DNA of 64,000 nucleotides from Squalus acanthias (Eukaryota): positions 58,902,001-58,966,000 of the forward strand of contig CM059432.1 of the NCBI GenBank assembly GCA_030390025.1, read 5' to 3'. A program made the translations under genes and the position numbers. Under the pieces are notes generated by a model. The model saw nothing but the letters and a program-made list of their open reading frames with translations. It made no database searches and was not told where the DNA came from. This document shows, one piece after another, positions 15,001 to 53,782 of the stretch (position 1 is its first letter; each line of letters opens with the position of its first letter).

Positions 15001-16375
15001 TTAAAAAAAAAGTAAGTGAGAAAAGCACAAACTATAGGCCAGTTAGCCTGACATCAGTAGTAGGGAAAATGCTAGAATGTTATTAGGGACGTAGTAACAG
15101 GGCACTTAGAAAATCTTAATATGATTGGGCAGAGTCAGCACGGATTTATGAAAGGGAAATAGTGTTTGACAAATCTGTTTTTTTAGGTTGTAACTAGCAG
15201 GATGGAAAAGGAGGAACCTGTAGATGTGGTGTATTTGGATTTTCAGAAGGCATTCGATAAGGTGCCACACAAGAGGTTATTACACAAAATACGGGCTCAT
15301 GGGATTGGGGTAATATGGATTGAGGATGGGTGAACGGACAGACAACAGAGTAGGAATAAACGGGTTGTTTTCAGGTTGGCATGCTGTAACTAGTGGGATA
15401 CCGCAAGGATCAGTGCTTGGGCCTCAGCTATTCACAATCTACATCAATGATTTGGATGAGGGGACCAAATGTAATATATCCAAGTTTGCTGATGATACAA
15501 AGCTAGGTGGGAAAGTAAGCTGTGAGGGGGACACAAAGAGGCTGTTAAGTGAGTGGGCAATGAGGTGGCAGATGGAATATAATGTGGAGAAGTGTGAAGT
15601 TATCCACTTTGGTAGGAAAACTAGAAAAGCAGGATATTTTGTAAATGACGAGAGACTGGGAAATGTTGGTATTCAGAGGGACCTGGGTGTCGTTGTACAT
15701 GAGTTACAGAAAGTTAACATGCAGGCAATTAGGAAAACAAATGGTATGTTAGCATTTATTACAAAGCGATTGGAGTACAAGAGTAAAGAAGCCTTACTAC
15801 AATTATATAGGGCCTTGCTGAGACCATACCTGGAGTACTGTATACAGTTTTGGTCTCCTTACCTAAGGCAGGTTATTCTTCAGAGGGAGTGTAACAAAAG
15901 TTCACTAGACTGATTCCTGGGATGGGGGGGATTGTCCTATGAAGAGAGATTGAGTAGACTAGGGCTATATTCTCTAGCATTTAGAAGAATGAAAGGTGAT
16001 CTCATTGAAGCATAACATTTTTAAGGGGCTTGACAGGGTAGATGCAGGGAGGATGTTTCCCCTGGCTGGGAGTCTAGAACTAGGGTATAGTCTCTGGGTA
16101 AGGGGTCGGCCATTTAGGACTGAGATGAGGAGAAATTTCTTCACTCAAAGGATTGTGAATCTTTGGAATTCTCTACCCCAGAGAGCTGTGATGCTCAGTC
16201 GTTGAGTATATTCAAGACTGAGATCGATACATTTTTGAATACTAAGGGACTCGAGATATGGGGAATAGTGCGGGAAGGTGGAGTTGAGGTAGAAGATCAG
16301 CCATGATCTTATTGAATGGCGGAGCAGGCACAACGGGCCGAATGGCCTACTCCTGCTTCTATTTCTTATGATTCT
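12010..16375 (+). mobile_element. Near full-length CR1 LINE, decayed (ORF1 with Cys motif and SGNH esterase; ORF2 APE-RT)
   Basis: ORF1 from 12284 (CLIC..CSKC; GDSIVR; VVVHVGTSD). ORF2 has AITETWL, YRPP, GIPQGSVLGP and FADDTK. 3' tail ends ttcttatgattct. The 5' boundary is approximate. Confidence 0.92.
13469..13624. mobile_element. hAT-type MITE (156 bp)
   Basis: 15-bp TIRs caatgttcccgttaa / ttaaagggaacattg (1 mismatch); perfect 8-bp TSD gtttgatc at 13461-13468 and 13625-13632. Confidence 0.9.
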
Positions 16376-25300: not shown

Positions 25301-28300
25301 TTTTTTATTCGTTTGTGGGATGTGGGCGTCGCTGGCATCCCTAATTGCCCTTGAGAAGGTGGTGGTGAGCCGCCGCCTTGAACTGCTGCACTCCGTGTGG
25401 TGAAGGTACACCCACAGTGCTGATAGGAAGGGAGTTCCAGGATTTTGACCCAGCGACGATGAAGGAACGGCGATATACTTCTAAGTCAGGATGGTGTGTG
25501 ACTTGGAGGGGAACTTGGAGGTGATGGTGTTCCCATGCGCCTGCTGCCCTTGTCCTTCTAGGTGGAAGAGGTCGCTGGTTTGGGAGGTGCTGCCGAAGAA
25601 GCCTTGGCGAGTTGCTGCAGTGCATCTTGTAGATGGTACACACTGCAGTCACGGTATGCCGGTGGTGGAGAGAATGAATGTTTAAGGTGGTGGATGGGGT
25701 GCCAATCAAGCGGGCTGCTTTGTCCTGGATGGTGTTGAGCTTCTTGAGTGTTGTTGGGGCAAGTGGAGAGTATTCCATCACACTCCTTACTTGTGCCTTG
25801 TAGATGGTGGAAAGGCTTTGGGGAGTCAGGAGGTGAGACACTCGCCGCAGAATACCTAGCTTCTGACCTGCTCTTGTTGCCACAGTATTTATGTGGCTGG
25901 TCCAGTTAAGTTTTTGGTCAATGGTGACCCCCAGGATATTGATGGTGGGGGATTTGGCGATGGTTATACCGTTGAATGTCAAGGGGAGGTGGTTAGACTC
26001 GCGCTTGTTAGAGATAGTCATTGCCTGGCACTTCTGTGGCGATAATGTTACCTGCCACTTATCAGCCCAAGCCTGAACGTCGTCCAGGTCTTGTTGCATG
26101 CGGGCATGGACTGTTTCATTATCTGAGGAGTTGTGAATGGCGCTGAACACTGTGCAGTCATCAGCAAACATCTCCATTTCTGACCTTATGTTGGAGGGAA
26201 GGTCATTGATGAAGCAGCTGAAGATGGTGGGGCCTAGGACACTGCCCTGAGGAACTCCTGCAGCGATGTCCTGGGGCTGTGATGATTGAACTTCAACCAT
26301 CTTCCTTTGTGCTAGGTATGACTCCAGCCAGTGGAGCGTTTTCCCCCCGATTCCCATTGACTTCAGTTTTACTAGGGCTCCTTGATGCCACACTCGGTCA
26401 AATGCTGCCTTGATGTCAAGAGCAGTCACTCTCACCTCACCCCTGGAATTCAGTTCCTTTGTCCATGTTTGGACCAAGGCTGTAATGAAGTCGGGAGCCA
26501 AGTGGTCTTGGCGGAACCCAAACTGGGCATCAGTGAGCAGCTATTGGTGAGAAAGTGCCGCTTGATCGCACTGTCGATGACTCCTTCCATCACTTTGTTG
26601 ATGATTGAGTGTAGACTGATGGGGCGGTAATTGGCCAGATTGGACCTGTCCTGCTTCTTGTGGACAGGACATACCCAGGCAGTTTTCCACATTGTTGGAT
26701 AGATGCCAGTGTTGCAGCTGTACTGGAACAGCTTGGGTAGAGGTGCGGCTAGTTCTGGAGCACAAGTCTTCACGATAGCCGGGATGTTGTCGCGGCCCAT
26801 AGCTTTTGCTGTATCCAGTGTACTCAGCCGTTTCTTGATATCACGTGGAGTGAATCGAATTGGCTGAAGACTGGCTTCTGTGATGGTGGGGACCTCAGGA
26901 GTAGGCCGATATGGATCATCCACTTATGGCTGAAGATGGTTGCAAACACTTCAGCCTTGTCTTTTGCACTCGTGCTGGGCTCCACCATCATTGAAGATGG
27001 GGATATTCATGGAGCCTCCTCCTCCCGTTAGTTGTTTAATTGTCCACCACCATTCACAACTGGATGTTGCAAGACTGCAGAGCTTTGATCTGATCCGTTA
27101 GCCCTGTCTATAGCATGCTGCTTCTTAGCGTGTCGTCCTGTGTTGCAGCTTCCCCAGGTTGGCACCTCATTTTTAGGTACGCCTGGTGCTGCTCCTGGCA
27201 TGCTCTTCTACACTCCTTATTGAAACAGGGTTGGTCCTCTGGCTTGATGGTAATGGTAGAGTGAGGGATATGCCGGGCCATGAGGTTACAGATTGTGGTG
27301 GAATACAATTCTGCTGCTGCTGATGATCCACAGCGCCTCATGAATGCCCAGTTTTGAGCTGCTAGATCTGTTCTGAATCTATCCCATTTAGCACAGTGGT
27401 AGTGGCACACAACACGATGGAGGATGTCCTCAATGTGGGACTTCATCTCCACAATGACTGTGCGGTGGTCACTGCTGCCAATGCTGTCATGGACAGATGC
27501 ATCTGCAACAGGTAGATTTGTGAGGACGACATCCAGTAGGTTTTTCCCTCGTGTTGGTTCACTCACCACCTGTCGCAGGCCCAGACTGGCAGCTCTGCCC
27601 TTCAGGGCTCAGCCAGTAGTGGTGCTACCGAGCCACTCTTGGTGATGGACATTGAAGTCCCCCACCCAGAGTACATTCTGTGCCCTTGCTACTCTCAGTG
27701 CTTCTTCCAAGTGGTGTTCAACATGGAGGAGTACTGATTCATCCGCTGAGGGAGGGCGGTAGGTGGTAATCAGCAGGAGGTTTCCTTGCCCATGCTTGAC
27801 CTGAAGCCATGAGACTTCATGGGGTCCGGAGTCAATGTTGAGGACTCCTAGGGCCACTCCTTCCCGATTGTATACCACTGTGCCACCACCTCTGGTGGGT
27901 CTGTCCTGCCGGTGGGACTGGACATACCCAGGGATGGTGATGGAGGAGTTTGGGACATTGGCTGAAAGGTATGATTGTCAGGCTGTTGCTTGACTAGTCT
28001 GTGGGACAGCTCTCCCAATTTTGGCACAAGTCCACAGATGTTGGTGAGGAGGACTTTGCAGGGTGTGCCATTGCTGTGTCCATAGCCGGTACCAAGGTTG
28101 TTGCCAGGTGGTCCGTCCGGTTTCATTTTTTGTTTTTCGTAGCGGTTTGTTACAATTGAGTGGCTTGCTAGGCCATTTCAGAGGGCAGGTAAGAGTCAAC
28201 CACATTGCTGTGAGTCTGGAGTCACATATAAGCCAGACCAGGTAAGGACGGCAGATTTCTTTCCCTAAAGAACATTAGTGAACCAGATGGGTTTTTAACG

Positions 28301-33401: not shown

Positions 33402-34737
33402 TTTGATTTAATAGCCATTGCAGAGACATGGTTGCAGAGTGACCAAAGTTGGGAACTAAATATTCCAGGATATTTGACTTTTAGAAGAGACAGGCAGAAT
33501 GGAAAAGGAGGAGGGGTAGCCCTGATAATAAAGGAGGGAATAAAGACAATAGAGAGAAAGGATCTTGGCTCGGAAATACAAAATGTAGAATCAGTTTGGG
33601 TGGAGCTAAAAAACAAGAGGTAGAAAACACTAGTGGGAGTAGTCTATAGGCCCCCTAACAGTGGTTGTAGTGTCGGGCAGAGTATAAATCAGGAAATTAG
33701 AGATGCATGTAACAAGGGTAATACAGTAATCATGGCGGACTTTAACTTTCATATAGACTGGGCAAACCAAATTTGCATAAATAGTGCAAAGGAAGAGTTA
33801 ATGGAACGCATTCAGGATAGTTTTCTAGATCAGTATGTCAAGGAACCTATGAGGGAATTGACTATTTTAGATCTAGTATTGTGCAATGAGACAGGGTTAA
33901 TTAATAACCTTGTAGTAAAGGAGCCTCTGGGGAGCAGTGATCATAATATGATAGAATTTTATGTTGAGTTTGAGAGTGATTTAGTTAAATCGGAAACTAG
34001 GGTCCTAAACCTGAACAAAGAAAACTACATAGGTGTGAGAGGCGAGTTGGCTAAGGTAGGTTGGGAAACTAGATTAAAAGATATGACAGTAGAAAAGCAA
34101 TGGCAAACATTTAAAGAAATAATTCATAATTCGCAACAAATATACATTCCCTTAAGGAATAAAAACACCACGGGGAAAATGGTACAACCATGGCTAACAA
34201 GAGAAATTAATGATAGTATTAGATTAAAGGAAGAGGTTTATAATGTTGCCAAAAAGAATAGTAAGCCTGAGGATTGGGAGGATTTTAGAATTCAGCAAAG
34301 GATGACCAAGAAATTCATAAAGAAAGCAAATGAGAGTAAACTAGCAAGAGACATAAAAACAGATTGTGAAAGTTTCTATATGTAAAAAGGAAGAGATCAG
34401 CAAAAGTAAACATGGATCCCTTAGAGGCAGAGACAGGAGAAATTATAATAGGGAATAAGGAAATGGCAGAGACATTAAACTTTGTATCAGTCTTCACGGA
34501 AGAAGACACAAAAAACATTCCAGAAATAGTGGGGAACCAAGGGTCTAGCGAGAATGAGGAATTTAAAGAAATTAGTATTAGTAAAGAAATAGCACTGGAG
34601 AAATTAATGGGACTAAAAGTAGTCTTGATGGTCTACATCCTAGGGTAAAAGAGGTGGCTAGAGAGAGGATGCATTGGTTTTGATCTTCCAAAAATCCCTA
34701 GATTCTACAGCAGTTCCCATGGATTGGAAGGTAGCCA

Positions 34738-37700
34738 ACGATTTTAGAATTCAGCAAAGGAGGACCAAGAAATTGATAAAGAAAGGGAAAATGGAATGAG
34801 AGTAAACTAGCGTGGGGCATAAAAACAGACTATAAAAACTTCTATAGGTATGTAAAAAGGAAAAGATTAGCGAAAGTAAATGTGGGAACCTTACAGGCTG
34901 AGACAGGAGAAATTATAATGGGGAATAAGGAAATGGCAGAGAAATTAAACAATTACTATGGCCGCGAATTTGCCGGCGCTCAGAGGGCAGGTTTCGAGGT
35001 GGGCCTGCTGTCAAAATAGCAAAGATTGACAGTGGGTAGGAAACCTGCTGTCAACCCGCCTCCACGCGAGTCTCCCAGGTGTCGGGTCTGTCAGCGGAGA
35101 ACTGACCTGACACCAAGCGGTGGGGGAGACAATTGAGCATGTTAAATGGCTTGTTAAGAGCCAATTTAATACTATTTTGAGGCTTCCTTGCAATTTTACG
35201 TTTTCCCCCACAGGTTACCTGCTGTTCGGGGAACACGTCAGCTCAAGCTGGCGTGATTTGAGGCTGTTCTGATGTTTCTGATACGCTGACAGCTGCAGAA
35301 GTGGTGTAAAGGATGGCATGTTGCAGATGGTCAGTTTCAGAGCACAGAAAATGTTGGTTACTGCATTTTTAAAACATATAGAGATTTCTTTAGCTTATAA
35401 GTTTTTAGATCCAACTGTATGTCCAGTGCCACCTCATTGGGAGAGCTCTCTCACTGTTGACATTGCTTCTGTCTTCTCACCTGCAGCTGCCATCTATTGC
35501 AGCAACATCAGTGCCTTTGAAAAAATAAGACCTTGGTCCTCTGAATCCCTCCACGATCAGCCCCAACACCAACATCACCAGGCTCGCCAACCTTCTCCGC
35601 CATCATCTGATGCTGCACTGGACACAGGGCATCAGCCCCTGACAACATTGCTGCCCGGGAGGCCAGCGATGGCATCACCATGGCCAGATTTTCTTCACTT
35701 GATGCTGTAAACCCTGGCTGCCACATGATGCGCCAGGTTGACACCATCCCACACCAGCACCGTGAAGCATCCCTTTAATGTCCAAGCCATTCCATGCACA
35801 CTCCTCACTATAGGGGGGGGGCGGATGTTATGTCTGAACAATCACTGGAACTCAGTAAGACACTTCTCAATGTGTGTGCAGATCTGACAATAAGGGGCAG
35901 TTTTGGAAAAATAGATTTCACTGTATGACAGCACATTACCAGAAACTTCACATGGACATTGGCTAAACCTCTCAAGTGCCTACCCTTGTGTGTTGTTAGT
36001 TGGTATGCTTGCAGTAGGATGAGGGTGAGTGTGAGGGGTGGCTAGTGAGATGGGGAAATGATAAAGTAGATAGAGAGGGATGGGTGGAGGTGCAAGGTAA
36101 GTTGGTGTGAGTTAGGATGTGCAGGAGAAGGGTAGGGAAGGCAGAGTGATGAGGATGTGTTGAGTGGCACAGCAGGGTGAGTTTGAGTGTGGCTTTGCAG
36201 TAACGTTTCGTGATCCACTGAGATCATTAAAAGGTTTGCGCCACTGCAGCCAGGGACCCCTGACGACATCCCTGCTTGTGTCTTCCTGTGCAATGTGCAA
36301 CCAGGCTGCGTTGGTATCCTGGGGAGGGAAGAGAACCTAACTGCATGCTGTGACTCTCTCCATAAGCATATGGAGGGAGTCATTGGAGCGCCTGCGTGCA
36401 AGCATCCACCTTTATGCAGTGCTTGTCAGTGTTTGCAGTACCTCAATGCTGTTAAACACTGACAGAATAACTGTCAAACTCCATGTGGGCGTGGTCCCTT
36501 TAAGGAAACCGGCTGATGACATGTCATCAAATGACATCATCAGACCCGCTTCCTGTTAATTGACCAGGAAGCCCACAGGGCGGGCTTAACAAGGCCAATC
36601 AAGGTAAAATCCCGTTTACAGAGCGGCTGCAGCCAGGTTCATGACTGGAACCCGGCAAACAGCTCTCCCGCTACCATCCCGCCTCTGTTGGGAAATTCGC
36701 AGCCTTTGTGTCTGTCTTCACGGAACAAGACGCAAAATACCTCCCGGAAATAGTGGAGAACCAAGGGTTTAGCGAGAATGAGGAACTGAAAGAAATAAGT
36801 ATTAATAAAAAAATAGTACTGGAGAAATTAATGCGACTGAAAGCCGATAAATCCCCTGGACCTGATGGCCTACATCCTAGGGTTTTGAAAGAGGTGGCTA
36901 TAGAGATAGTGGATCCATTGGTTGTCATCTTCCAAAATTCCATAGATTCTAGAACGGTTCCCGCAGATTGGAAAGTAGTAAATGTAACCCCACTATTTAA
37001 GAAAGGAGGGAGAGAGAAAATGGGGAACTACAGACCAGTTGGCCTGACATCAGTAGTAGGGAAAATGCTAGAATCTATTATTAAGGACGTGGTAACAGGG
37101 CACTTAGAAAATAATAATAGGATTGGGCAGAGTTAACACAGATTAATGAAAGGGACATCATGTTTGACAAATCTGTTAGAGTTTTTTGAGGTTATAACTA
37201 GCAGAATAGATAAGGGGGAACCAGTGAATGTGGTGTATTTGGATTTTCAGAAGGCATTCGATAAGGTGCCACACAAGAGGTTATTGAACAAAATTAGGGC
37301 CCATGGAATTGGGGGTAATATACTAGCATGGATTGAGGATTGGTTAACGGACAGAAAACAAAGAGTAGGAATAAACAGGTCATTTTCAGGCTGGCAGGCT
37401 GTAACTAGTGGGGTACCGCAAGGATCAGTGCTTGGGCCTCAGCTATTCACAATCTATATTAATGATTTGGATGAGGGGACCAAATGTAATATATCCAAGT
37501 TTGCTGATGATACAAAGCTAGGTGGGAATGTAAGTTGTGAGGAGGATGCAAAGAGGCTTCAAGGGGATATAGACAGGCAAAGTGAGTGGGCAAGAACATG
37601 GCAAATGGAATATAATGTGGAGAAATGTGAAGTTATTCACTTTAGTAGGAGAAATAGAAAAGCAGAGTATTTTTTAAATGGTGAGAGATTGGAAAATGTT

Positions 37701-37950
37701 GGTATTCAGAGGGACCTGGGTGTCCTTGTACACGAATCACTGAAAGTTAACATGCAGGTACAGCAAGCAATTAGGAAATCAAATGGTATGTTGGCCTTTA
37801 TTACAAGAGGATTTGAGTATAAGAGTAAAGACGTCTTACTGCAATTATATAGGGGCCTGGTGAGACCACACCTGGAGTATTGTGTACAGTTTTGGTCTCT
37901 ACCTAAGGAAAGATATACTTGCCTTGGAAGGGAGTGCAAAGAAGGTTCAC
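34738..37950 (+). mobile_element. Second CR1 ORF2 segment (RT), interrupted by a Harbinger derivative
   Basis: Restarts ~460 bp upstream in CR1 coordinates; KSPGPDGLHPR, NYRPV, DFQKAFD, QGSVLGP, FADDTK; 3' end truncated near 37950. Confidence 0.9.
34960..36704. mobile_element. PIF/Harbinger internal-deletion derivative, copy 2
   Basis: TIRs ggccgcgaattt / aaattcgcagcc; flanks tat/ttt; removing it restores CR1 codons NNY|FVSVF; Myb-like remnant WLQWRKPFNDL on minus. Confidence 0.88.
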
Positions 37951-38539
37951 AGCAACACAGCAGGAAGAGCTGACTGGCCAGAAGAGGCCTATGTAAGTTT
38001 TAGAACTTCGCTTGGTTTCAAGATCCTTGTGGGCTAGAAGGAGCAGGAGTGCTCCCACCAGGCCTCACCAGGAAGCCTTCAGCCTCCCCAGCCCCGACCT
38101 CGCCTCTTCCTGATTGCTGCCATCAGGAGGTTCCCCCCCTCCCGATCGCGGCCTGAGATCCTTCCTTCCCCTCCTCCCAATCGCGGCCTCAGCCTTCCTC
38201 CTCCCATCTCCTGATCGCAGCCTGAGGCTTCCCCTCCGTCCCTGACTATCCGGGACCATTCCTACGGGTTCCTGGTGGCCGGCCAGACAGTCAGGTGGGA
38301 ATCTGCACAGAATTATTTAAATGAGACCCACCATCACTGTCCCTGGCCTTGACTGGTTCTTCACTCTCCTATAATCACTGCAGTAGACTTCACTTAAACC
38401 ATCTTCTCCTCATATTCATTGCTATTACAACACTCTCTCCAAGTTAATGGAAATATAGACAGATAAAAAGACATTAGCCACAGGACAGATGGAGCAACCA
38501 TCCCGCTACTGGGCTCCCCCGCATCCTTCCCATCCCCCA

Positions 38540-48760: not shown

Positions 48761-49169
48761 ACCTTGATGTCGTGAGAAGGCTTGCGTGCTCCTATGATCT
48801 TGAGAGCTATGCTGGTGGGTGTATAACATCTGTTGGGGCTACTCAAGGCAGTCAATCGGCCTCCTGGTAGGCGGTTATGAGTCAGGCTAATGACCTGTGT
48901 GGTAACACAATACAGCTTCCTGTGACTCGAACTTTATTGCATCACTTCCTGTGATTAGTCCAGGATAAATACTGGACTGATCAGTTGGATCCTGGAGAGG
49001 CATAGAGTAAGACCTCTTTTGTATGTAGCACCTTTTTAGTTGATTAAAGCTTACTTTAAGTTCACCACGCGTAAGGCTCATTCTTACGACAATTTAATCA
49101 ACTTTGAAAAACTTCGTACTCAAACTTTTTGGACGAACTCGGAACTAAGGATCCAGGGAATCACCCATC

Positions 49170-50855
49170 ATGGAAAACATCCTTAAACCATCGCGTCTTG
49201 ACTTGGACCCAAACACCCCAGCAGCCGGTAAGGTGTGGAAACACTGGTATCGCACGTTTGACAATTTCCTTGAGTATTGCAAGGCTGATGATGACTCAAA
49301 GTTGCGGATACTCATCAACTGTGTCACCCCGAATGTATTTCAGTATGTGGAGGAATGGGACAGTTACGAGGAGGCAATTCGGAAGCTTAAGAGACTATAT
49401 ACTAAGACACTGAATGAGGTCTATGCCAGACATCTACTAGCTACAGCCCAACAAGGGCCGGAGGAATCCATTGATAAATTCCTCCAAGAGCTTCGCAGAC
49501 TTAGTATGGACTGTAACTTTCGGGCGGCCTCGGCTGAGCTGTACCGTGAAGAGATGATCCGTGATGCTTTCATCTGCGGGCTTGCCTCCCCATTTATACG
49601 CCAGCGTCTACTGGAAAGTAAGACACTTGAGCTTCAGAGAGCTTATGACATGGCTTGCTCTCTAGATCTGGCAAAAAGAAATGCAGACCTTTATACAGTG
49701 CCCAGACCTCGGTCTACTGCCTTAACTACAGTCAGGCAATTTAAGAGGCCACAGGTGAACTCTATTAGGGAGGTCTTTATCCCTGACGATCAATCTGATG
49801 ACTTCACTGATGAAGAGGATGATGACCCCACTGTGGCAGCCTCTTGGCAATCTAAGAAATGCTTCTTTTGTGGTGATGAGTTTCACCCTCGGAAATTCTG
49901 CCCTGCTCGCAATGCGTTTTGCAGTCATTGCAACAAAAAGGGTCATTTTGCAAAGGTTTGCCTATCAAGAGCCTCTACAAGGGCTTATCAAGCTAAGTCC
50001 TACCGAACTGCCCCGGTAAGGGCCTATCAAGATGTTCCGGCTAAAATCTATCGTGCTTCCTCTTGGGTTTCCTCTCGAAGAAACACACCTAGAGTTTCAG
50101 CCACTCTTTGTGCAATGACACCAATTACAGCTGCTTGTCCTCAGAACCTATTCCATGCAGCTACAAAAGCATCAATTAATGGACATACTTTAGATGCCTT
50201 AATTGACTCAGGTAGCACTGATAGTTTCATTAGGGAACAGATTGTTGCAGAGTTAAAGCTACATTTTTTCCCATCGGACCAGGCAATTGCGATGGCTCAG
50301 TCATCACTTAATACCAGAATTTCTGGCTTTTGTATGGTTGAAATAACACTTAATGGTCACAGGTATCCCTCCACCCGGCTTTCGGTGCTCAAGGACTTAT
50401 GTAGTAATCTTATCTTAGGGCTGGATTTTCAAAAGCAGCATAAGAAGCTCACCATTGAGTTCGGCGGACCCAAACCTGAACTCACTATTTCTAATATACA
50501 ACCTCGATTACCGTTCTGTGCATTGTCAGCAGCTTCACTGGATGAACCCTCACTGTTTACCAGTATCCCTCCTCGATGCAAACCGATTATAACAAAGTCA
50601 CGACATTTCAGTCAGGAAGACCAGTCTTTTATTGCGGCTGAGATTTCTCGGCTTTTAGCAGAGGATATCATCGAGCCTTGTTCGTCGCCATGGCGCGCCC
50701 AGGTCGTTATTGTTAAGAACCCTCTACAACCTCACAAGAAACGGCTGTGCATTGACTATTCACAGACCATCAATCAATATACGGACTTGGACGCATACCC
50801 ATTGCCATGGTTAATAAACTGGCTGAGTACACGGTGTTCTCAACATATGATCTGA
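49170..50855 (+). CDS. Gypsy Gag (two Cys/His knuckles), aspartic protease and RT N-terminus
   Basis: CFFCGDEFHPRKFC, CSHCNKKGHFAKVC, LIDSGS, SSPW, RLCIDY; frame broken after YPLP. Confidence 0.9.
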   Translation: MENILKPSRLDLDPNTPAAGKVWKHWYRTFDNFLEYCKADDDSKLRILINCVTPNVFQYVEEWDSYEEAIRKLKRLYTKTLNEVYARHLLATAQQGPEESIDKFLQELRRLSMDCNFRAASAELYREEMIRDAFICGLASPFIRQRLLESKTLELQRAYDMACSLDLAKRNADLYTVPRPRSTALTTVRQFKRPQVNSIREVFIPDDQSDDFTDEEDDDPTVAASWQSKKCFFCGDEFHPRKFCPARNAFCSHCNKKGHFAKVCLSRASTRAYQAKSYRTAPVRAYQDVPAKIYRASSWVSSRRNTPRVSATLCAMTPITAACPQNLFHAATKASINGHTLDALIDSGSTDSFIREQIVAELKLHFFPSDQAIAMAQSSLNTRISGFCMVEITLNGHRYPSTRLSVLKDLCSNLILGLDFQKQHKKLTIEFGGPKPELTISNIQPRLPFCALSAASLDEPSLFTSIPPRCKPIITKSRHFSQEDQSFIAAEISRLLAEDIIEPCSSPWRAQVVIVKNPLQPHKKRLCIDYSQTINQYTDLDAYPLPWLINWLSTRCSQHMI

Positions 50856-51844
50856 AAAGTGCCTATCATCAGGTACCCTTGAAGGTCTCAGACAAGCAGT
50901 ATACGGCCTTTGAAGCCAATGGACGGCTGTATCAATTTCGTCGCCTCCCCTTTGGGGTCACTAATGGAGTGGCTGTCTTCCAGCGAGCAATGGATGAACT
51001 GGTCAAACAGGAAGACTTGAAGGATACGTTTCCTTATCTGGACAATATTACTGTCGCAGGTCACAATCAGCGGGAACATGACGCCAATCTCCAACGATTT
51101 TGGGATGCACTCCAGCACCGTAATTTGACATTAAATGCGGCTAAATCCATTGAGTCACAACCAACCATCAACATCCTTGGCTATTGTGTGGGCAATGGCA
51201 TCATTAAGCCTGACCCTGAAAGGCTTCGCCCACTCCAAGAACTCCCGCCACCTAAGAATCCGGCCTCCTTGCGCCGGGCCCTCGGCCTGTTTGCATACTA
51301 TGCTAAATGGATTCCTAACTTCTCGGACCGAATCCAACCTCTACTGAAGGCTAGCACATTCCCACTAGACACAGCGGCTGTTGCAGCCTTTAACCTCCTG
51401 AAAAAACAGTTGGAGAAAGCGGCTCTTCACTCCATCGATGAGAGTCTTCCTTTTGTTGTTGAGTGTGATGCCTCGGAGGTGGCGATCTCGGCCACTCTGA
51501 ATCAGGAAGGTCGTCCGGTGGCATTTTTGTCCAGGACTTTTCAAGGGGCTGAGCTACATTATCCTCCAGTCGAGAAAGAAGCTACAGCCATCATAGAGGC
51601 AGTACGGAAGTGGAGTCATCTCCTAGCTCGCCAGCACTTTACCATAATCACGGACCAGCGATCGGTCGCCTTCATGCTCGATAATCGAAAACGGACCAAA
51701 ATTAAAAATAATAAAATCCAGCTTTGGCGGCTGGAATTGGCCTCCTTTGGTTACACCATCCACTATCGACCTGGCAAGGAGAATGTGGCTCCGGATACCC
51801 TCACACGAGCATTCTGCTCCGCCATGGCACCTCTACGCTCGTAG
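50807..51844 (+). CDS. Gypsy RT and RNase H (frameshifted continuation)
   Basis: DLKSAYHQ, LPFGV, YLDN, VECDAS, EKEA, TDQ, YRPGKENVAPDTL. Confidence 0.9.
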   Translation: MVNKLAEYTVFSTYDLKSAYHQVPLKVSDKQYTAFEANGRLYQFRRLPFGVTNGVAVFQRAMDELVKQEDLKDTFPYLDNITVAGHNQREHDANLQRFWDALQHRNLTLNAAKSIESQPTINILGYCVGNGIIKPDPERLRPLQELPPPKNPASLRRALGLFAYYAKWIPNFSDRIQPLLKASTFPLDTAAVAAFNLLKKQLEKAALHSIDESLPFVVECDASEVAISATLNQEGRPVAFLSRTFQGAELHYPPVEKEATAIIEAVRKWSHLLARQHFTIITDQRSVAFMLDNRKRTKIKNNKIQLWRLELASFGYTIHYRPGKENVAPDTLTRAFCSAMAPLRS

Positions 51845-53076
51845 ACATCCATGATGGGTTGTGTCATCCGGGCGTTACTCGCATGCTACACTTCGTGCGG
51901 TCCCGAAATCTCCCATTCTCTACCGGGGATGTAAAGAAGATGTGCTCGGACTGCAGAGTCTGTGCGGAATTGAAACCTCAGTTTTTCCGCCCCTCGGGTG
52001 GTATACTCATACATGCGACCCAGCCAATGCAACGGCTTAGCATCGATTTTAAGGGGCCGTTGCCCTCTTCAACTCGCAACACTTATCTGTTGACCATGGT
52101 CAATGAGTATTCCCGTTTTCCATTTGCCTTTCCCTGCCCCAATATGCTGACGACCACGGTTATCAGCTGCCTTGAGCAGGTATTTGCTTTCTGTGGCATG
52201 GCATCCTATGTTCATTCGGATCGGGGCCCTTCTTTTATGTCAGGAGAACTCAAGGCCTATCTCTCGGAACGGGGTATTGCTGCCAGCAGAACGACGCCTT
52301 ATCATCCGGTCGGGAATGGGCAAGTCGAGCGTTTTAACGCTATCATCTGGAATGCGGTACGTCTGGCTTTGAGATCTCGGGGCCTACCCAACCAGCAATG
52401 GGAAGCAGTACTTCCAGACGCATTACACTCCACACGGTCCCTCCTTTCGACCGCCACAAATACGACGCCTCATGAACGGTTCTTCCGATTTCAGCGTCGC
52501 TCATCCTATGGAATATCTCTCCCGTCGTGGCTGACTACACCGGGACCAGTGCTACTCCGAAGATATGTCCGGGCGTCTAAGAATGACCCCCTGGTAGATG
52601 AAGTTGAGCTCACTGACGTCAACCCTACCTACGCCTATATTCGGTATCCTGACGGTCAGGAATCTACCGTGTCATTGCGGGATCTGGCTCCCTGCCCGCC
52701 GAAACATAGAGGGACACCAGGGGATGATATTGTACCAGGCACATCTCTGGGCTTGCCAGGTGCCTCTCATCACGATCTGGATCTGACGCCGGCTGGTACC
52801 TCACTCCAGCGTGCCGACCTGGGGCAGACTGACTATGAGCCCGTCGGGGCTCGCACGCGCAGCCACGATCCACCCCGTACCGTACGCTCGGAAACGGATC
52901 TGCCACAGCCCTGCCCGACACCCGTTCGGGCACCAGTACACAGTCAGGATCGTCCTGACCCCTCACAGAGCGGGCTGGATCACTCGGACTCTGGTCCACG
53001 GCCCGCGGCGGGTAAACGGGCTAGGGGCCCTCTACCGCTACGAGAACCCAAACGGGTGCGGCTCTCCCTCGTTTAG
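51830..53076 (+). CDS. Gypsy integrase (frameshifted continuation)
   Basis: HHCC (HDGLCHPG..CRVC), SIDFKG, HSDRG, NGQVER; Pro/Arg-rich tail; no chromodomain or env recognised. Confidence 0.9.
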
Positions 53077-53782
53077 CGGCTACGAAATGGAGGGAGCATC
53101 CCGGCCTCCTAATCTTTTGGGGGGGGAGAATGTGGTAACACAATACAGCTTCCTGTGACTCGAACTTTATTGCATCACTTCCTGTGATTAGTCCAGGATA
53201 AATACTGGACTGATCAGTTGGATCCTGGAGAGGCATAGAGTAAGACCTCTTTTGTATGTAGCACCTTTTTAGTTGATTAAAGCTTACTTTAAGTTCACCA
53301 CGCGTAAGGCTCATTCTTACGACAACCTGTTCACGTAAAAATGTATTTAGTCACAGAAGCAACCAGAGACAAGGTGAGTCTATTACAGACTTGCAAATAT
53401 ACACATCAACTGTGGAGAACCATGATCTGCAAGATGATACACTGACGGAGTCAAATATCTTACTCTGGACAAACAGCAGTGGAAGAAATGGGTTACGTCA
53501 TATGCCGCTAGGCACAGGAGACTCTAACTATCTAACAGACTATCGCTGCACCCTCCTCCAGTCTTATTGTTCCTTCCACACACCTTCTGACTCTGACTTT
53601 GAACTTCTATCTATTCTGCCCTACCTTCGCTTACCATTGGTGGTAGATCCTTTGGCCGTACTTTCTGGAACTCCTTCCCTTTAATTCTCTACTCTCTTCA
53701 TCTTGAAAAAAATATTAAAATCCATCTTTTTGACTGAGCATTCTCATCCTAACTCTTCCTCCTTGATCCATCCCACTATCTA

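Follow-up and report, generated by a model that had tools for sequence, protein, structure and literature searches.

To our knowledge, self-priming of reverse transcription has been demonstrated experimentally in fission-yeast Tf1 only, and has been predicted for the chromoviruses related to it and for a few lineages of plants. In the starlet sea anemone, self-primed Gypsy families were reportedly noted in Repbase around 2007, without covariation analysis or a link to polyadenylation. The available parts of the literature describe self-priming for Tf1, Tf2 and Tj1, for the Tf1/sushi group, for Tcn1 and for TAR copia elements, and among the matches listed no non-chromoviral animal clade with self-priming is named. 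According to the accessible text on Tf1, the mRNA's initial 11 bases pair with the primer-binding site (PBS), cleavage by RNase H falls between bases 11 and 12 (PMC7175516), and the primer is copied back into the PBS (PMC11042837). For the vertebrate chromoviruses of the Tf1/sushi group and for plant Tcn1, the available sections of PMC6317226 predict self-priming from LTR-PBS complementarity. The same sections predict it for the TAR lineage of plant Ty1/copia, outside Tf1/sushi, which shows that self-priming can have more than one origin.

The element analysed here is a Ty3/Gypsy LTR retrotransposon at positions 48898-53324 (+ strand, as for all parts of the element below) of a Squalus acanthias window, by which we mean the whole stretch of 64,000 nucleotides. 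Its domain order, gag-protease-RT-RNase H-integrase, places it in Ty3/Gypsy, and TG...CA LTRs, a target-site duplication and a polypurine tract were likewise present; the integrase-before-RT order of the Gmr1 clade was not found in it. The 5' LTR (48898-49091) and the 3' LTR (53131-53324) are 194 bp each and identical in sequence, and the element is flanked on the left (48893-48897) and on the right (53325-53329) by the 5-bp duplication ACCTG. Gag with two CCHC knuckles, the protease and the start of RT occupy 49170-50855, with a frame break near 50810. RT with its YLDN motif and RNase H lie at 50756-51844, with a second frame break near 51830, and an integrase with a low-complexity tail and without a chromodomain lies at 51715-53076. 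The polypurine tract (53120-53130) adjoins the 3' LTR. The RT motif (50970-50990) reads YLDN here and in most of 37 relatives, and YLDD in a minority. Elsewhere in the window, ORF fragments of non-LTR (LINE-type) RT/endonuclease were seen at 15314-15913, 25341-26540, 33624-34385 and 37137-37973.

A PBS for the 3' end of a tRNA must start with TGG, and no TGG was found at the LTR edge. A single A (49092) separates the terminal CA of the LTR from the PBS TTTAATCAACT (49093-49103), which is the exact reverse complement of AGTTGATTAAA (49038-49048) inside the LTR. The latter, the predicted self-primer arm, has as its 3' end an ATTAAA poly(A)-like hexamer (49043-49048), and the 3' LTR carries a second copy of the arm and a second ATTAAA (53276-53281). 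Between arm and PBS lies a 43-nt loop (49049-49091) that comprises what remains of R plus U5 and is predicted to form small hairpins. The initial annotation had reported both the exact LTR complement without TGG and the ATTAAA within the arm. Both observations were confirmed, and the complement exceeded chance in random 20-mers and in shuffles: an 11-nt complement in the element's LTR was reached by none of 19,856 random 20-mers from the window and by 12 of 20,000 shuffled versions of the PBS region. The 66-nt segment from arm to PBS had a folding z of -3.64, with 1 of 200 shuffles folding as well. Ten of the 11 pairs had predicted probabilities of 0.68-1.0 under each of three assumed starts, and the innermost pair had 0.43. 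In 36 of 38 host loci of the window family (two of the loci being the window itself) arm and PBS were both intact. An 11-nt complement one base past the LTR falls within the range that the available text of PMC6317226 sets for self-priming, namely a minimum of 10 bp with a start 0-5 bp beyond the LTR.

In several respects the window element resembles Tf1 and Tf2 of Schizosaccharomyces pombe and Tj1 of S. japonicus, whose PBS, according to the accessible parts of PMC7175516 and PMC4600332, also complements an 11-nt stretch of their own LTR. These elements share with the window lineage the lack of a tRNA site, the Ty3/Gypsy domain order and a single ORF in intact copies. Unlike them, the window lineage has an animal host, no chromodomain and a YLDN/YLDD RT on a long branch. 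Its arm terminates with a hexamer resembling a poly(A) signal, its duplex measures 11-17 bp, and a TATA-like box suggests that its arm may be internal rather than the 5' end of the RNA. In comparison with Tf1/sushi and Tcn1, no chromodomain or SH3_Tf2-1 domain was detected in the relatives scanned, the score against Ty3 RT is lower than that of a Gmr1-like control, and the elements are 4.2-4.5 kb long with LTRs of about 155-230 bp. TAR differs from the window element in superfamily and in host kingdom.

A homologue search returned 203 proteins, of which the 120 listed had 37-55% identity, with shrimp, woodlouse, sea anemone, tunicate, fluke and aphid among the named hosts. In a metagenome scan 66 loci were found, and the 27 whose match started at or near the protein start were examined, the other 39 being left out. 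Fifteen of these carried a perfect arm of 11-17 bp at the PBS position and three a degraded arm there; three were too short, and six had no identifiable LTR end or arm. No relative was detected in viral contigs. Among 16 representatives, a perfect match of at least 11 nt from the first PBS base was present in 12. The remaining four comprised one copy chosen for a PBS mutation, two that were old or mismatched and one in which the script found no arm. The mean match of a PBS to its own LTR was 11.2 nt, as compared to 5.55 nt for the LTRs of other families, and the 18 of 240 foreign pairs that reached 11 nt were nearly all between families with the same core. None of 20,000 permutations reached the observed sum of own-LTR matches, a figure that is not a strict probability as the rows are related.

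When 15 rows were aligned over the 11 arm positions, with the position of the arm chosen by best pairing, 161 of the 165 cells were Watson-Crick, and at least two pair types occurred at 7 of the 11 positions. In one row (L074) only 9 of 11 positions paired. Nine different perfect 11-mers were found, each matched in its own LTR, in relatives down to about 50% RT identity. At closer range, both LTRs of L049 read T and its PBS reads A at a position where L051 has G and C; the RT distance between the two is about 0.015 changes/site. Compensatory change in related families had been set beforehand as a test, and the nine 11-mers and the close-range double changes passed it strongly. The arm-PBS feature is genuine, and selection maintains it across a wide lineage. 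Its geometry, the lack of TGG and the lineage-wide covariation are direct observations, and the covariation demonstrates pairing, not priming as such. The three bases 3' of the arm are RCY in 15 of the 16 representatives, followed in most by small hairpins, which would fit a conserved cleavage context.

In the 3.7 Gb host assembly the gag search gave 5,845 candidates, and all of the 150 scored had at least 97% identity, which indicates that the window family is young and abundant and therefore that it has replicated using this PBS. Many of the scored copies had open frames of about 1,320 aa. A degenerate arm/PBS pattern matched the host 62 times, against 14 times for a backwards control. By eye, 30 of the 62 matches were assigned to a single subfamily whose arm carries C and whose PBS carries G; pairing was perfect in 24 of the 30. 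With a tighter pattern for this subfamily (2b), G was present in the PBS of 32 of 32 copies, and the arm of the 5' LTR had C in 23 and T in 9. Where the 3' LTR of a T copy was visible, it retained C in six of seven cases, so the T is a later CpG decay; the copies of subfamily 2b together count as one covariation event. Tolerance of wobble pairing (9 U-G against 0 C-A) was considered for this subfamily and rejected, six of the seven checked copies having decayed after insertion.

Another host copy, L135, has a paired change in the 5' LTR and the PBS. The 3' LTR of this copy lacks the change and no clean duplication flanks it; the copy is therefore ambiguous and was rejected as clean proof of primer copying. 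At this position the host had 14 and 21 single changes and 1 double change. Primer run-off junctions after 3' LTRs were also searched for. None was found among nine LTRs with a polypurine tract before and the start of a PBS after them: six were tandem elements and three matched over 5 nt only. Tandem copies of the window family sharing one LTR were seen in the host (L142-L143, L145-L146, L148 and L149). They resemble the integrase-independent tandems described for Tf1 in the available text of PMC11042837. Closely spaced gag matches on host contig C15 near 64.06-64.08 Mb may be further tandems. The host also has at least two further families of the clade (L105, L151-L168 and L169-L170) with the same design and LTRs of about 215 bp, and one of them includes an older subfamily with the C/G arm variant.

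The initial annotation had considered a link to the Tf1/sushi group and had seen no recognisable chromodomain. The latter observation holds for the window and for the relatives scanned. A chromodomain was absent from the three ORFs of the window and from the 120 listed homologues, it was not among the domain families displayed for 37 relatives (25 of 27 families), and no SH3_Tf2-1 domain was found in the relatives scanned. Against Ty3 RT, a close relative scored 161 bits and the Gmr1-like control 263. Against a second, unrelated RT chain (8r0s) they scored 122 and 191, and since the relative is lower here too, general divergence contributes to its low Ty3 score. In an RT-RNase H tree of 30 rows, built without Tf1 or sushi and after the exclusion of a Mag-like row and of L061 for insufficient length, the 25 rows of the clade grouped at 100/100 on a stem of 2.69 changes/site. 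A CsRn1-like row, labelled by its motifs, fell outside the clade. Mag and CsRn1 clades are characterised by RT grouping and a tRNA-type PBS. With no chromodomain, a long branch and a Ty3 score below the Gmr1-like control, the link to Tf1/sushi was not supported, although the tree contained no member of that group. The element probably self-primes in the manner of Tf1, but we do not place it in Tf1/sushi. The clade is likely an animal lineage separate from that group, and it could still be a fast-evolving offshoot.

The sea-anemone protein P0050 (Actinostola) nests within the clade in this tree, which makes an earlier notice at the database level quite possible; the Repbase families of the starlet sea anemone may, we presume, be this clade. 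Literature under the names Selfy and Troyka gave nothing relevant, and an Atlas look-up returned gag clusters only, none of them named. Five peptide motifs of the clade were not found in the searchable supplements of PMC6238403 and PMC8556966. Of 33 SH3_Tf2-1 matches in the host, considered as possible chromoviral references, 12 were inspected, and none of these 12 was recognisably a chromovirus. Host copies that we take from their motifs to be CsRn1-like and Mag-like, plus a Gmr1-like integrase-before-RT element beside a metagenome relative, were located at L206:1115-2239, L121:422-1183, L014:2247-3280 and L073:9507-12401. L126, L127 and L129 are retroelements whose integrase is about 30% like that of the clade, with a separate long downstream ORF that is possibly envelope-like. 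L128, L130, L133, L134 and L137 are long-branch retroelements, presumably ERV-like.

Because arm and PBS covary, also between close subfamilies, self-priming is likely. We put the probability that the window Gypsy element primes reverse transcription with its own LTR arm at roughly 0.8, judging from sequence. By analogy with Tf1, the element RNA would fold back so that the LTR arm pairs with the PBS, and the element's RNase H would cut right behind the TAAA of the arm, directly 3' of 49048. From the 3' end of the arm thus freed, minus-strand DNA would begin one base beyond the LTR; strand transfer could proceed via the short stretch from the cut to the poly(A) site. The same duplex would probably also cover the 5' poly(A) hexamer in most families. 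If the primer were copied back into the PBS, as in Tf1, this would yield the paired changes observed here. The earlier proposal that the element relies on self-complementary priming in place of a tRNA is thus supported by the arm-PBS covariation across relatives.

Where the RNA starts is a separate matter, and the start at about 49038 proposed at the outset received evidence in both directions. In its favour, 13 of 15 rows have an A and a G precisely 11 and 10 nt ahead of the arm end, in a context that resembles the initiator consensus, and most metagenome LTRs gave no TATA match. Against it, a TATA-like box lies upstream of the arm by 74-92 nt in four host LTR types: GATAAATA (48964-48971), for which a promoter role is presumed, does so by 74 nt in the window family, and TATAAA by 90-92 nt in three sister LTR types. 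In the window the box lies within the loop of an 11-bp inverted repeat (48955-48984). In the contigs of eight sequencing runs no start, end or poly(A) junction was seen, from which we draw nothing either way. Pairing also extends past the AG, at -12 in 14 of the 15 rows, -13 in 12, -14 in 6, -15 in 8 and -16 in 12. The window family is the sole row unpaired at -12, and in most relatives the pairing runs 2-5 nt further upstream than the equivalent of 49038. From the position of the box and the usual TATA-to-start spacing, the start would fall near 48995. To a TATA-driven start there, with the arm internal in R, we give slightly less than an even chance. A start at 49038 or at most 3 nt from it is unproven and seems distinctly less probable, and positions other than these two take up the rest.

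The poly(A) hexamer raises the question of what else the duplex may do. It had been suggested that the duplex masks the 5' signal and leaves the 3' one free. An arm ending in ATTAAA or AATAAA was present in 7 of 11 rows, and the 5' hexamer was predicted to be 83-98% paired. In the other four rows the arm hexamer is non-canonical, and three of these have another hexamer downstream, outside the arm; the 3' hexamer is itself predicted to be 46-91% paired, by a local hairpin. Masking by the arm-PBS duplex is thus plausible on the folding model, but it is not general, and the 3' signal would be partly paired as well. In HIV-1, a poly(A) hairpin in R occludes the 5' hexamer and priming is by a tRNA, whereas in the window element the partner strand of the hexamer is the PBS itself. 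It might be argued that hiding the 5' signal is the main task of the duplex, and that priming is left to an unidentified host RNA or to the 3' copy of the arm. The hexamers and their predicted pairing fit this, as does the spacing of the TATA-like box, which suits a conventional U3-R-U5 organisation where the arm belongs to R. We nevertheless consider it improbable: besides the four non-canonical rows and the paired 3' hexamer, the partner strand always begins 1 nt past the LTR end, which is where a primer has to end, and there is no other PBS.

A host RNA could instead pair with the PBS directly, as an internal tRNA fragment or another small RNA, the match to the LTR being secondary. Internal tRNA priming is known in other elements, according to the available text of PMC10886601 and PMC6317226, and five distant rows have an 11-mer in common. 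The tRNA sample from the host (50 loci with 43 tRNA calls and 19 distinct sequences) consisted mainly of Lys, Cys and Thr, and this restriction to three types also leaves room for such a primer. Within these three types the longest match to the PBS in plausible tRNAs was 7 nt, and no Rfam match was found around the arm/PBS site. Two longer tRNA matches were discarded as spurious wrap-around calls. Since nine different PBS cores each follow their own LTR, and each double change in a sister subfamily would require another tRNA, we give this explanation very little credence. The host also has tandem arrays of tRNA-Lys(TTT) genes (L179-L199) with a period of about 1.8 kb. Just as remote is the idea that the inverted repeat is a functionless by-product of hairpin correction or template switching at the DNA level. 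The change in L135, confined to the 5' LTR and the PBS, is what such a process would leave, and correction could also account for the variable extension past 11 bp. In L049 and subfamily 2b, by contrast, both LTRs carry the change, and a by-product accounts neither for a register at the LTR end that stays fixed between lineages whose LTRs are unrelated, nor for the many young copies from elements without a tRNA site. Self-priming from the LTR arm is the reading that we retain.

A wider proposal can be built on it. A widespread, non-chromoviral animal Gypsy clade may have evolved self-priming independently of Tf1/sushi and to a different design. The start would be upstream, the 3' end of the primer would be the poly(A) hexamer of the LTR, located in R, and a single hairpin would both suppress 5' polyadenylation and, once RNase H had cut internally, provide the primer. 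Taken as a whole this is tentative, and we hold it to be rather doubtful. The mechanism itself is known from yeast Tf1, and here it probably operates in what is likely a separate animal lineage. A young, high-copy vertebrate family within a broad animal clade would extend self-priming to a likely independent origin, and, with its natural compensatory pairs, would make self-priming testable on tissue RNA that already exists. An element that needs no tRNA would escape control by the host through 3' tRNA fragments. That primer and poly(A) hexamer overlap suggests that RNA processing and priming are coupled in a compact way.
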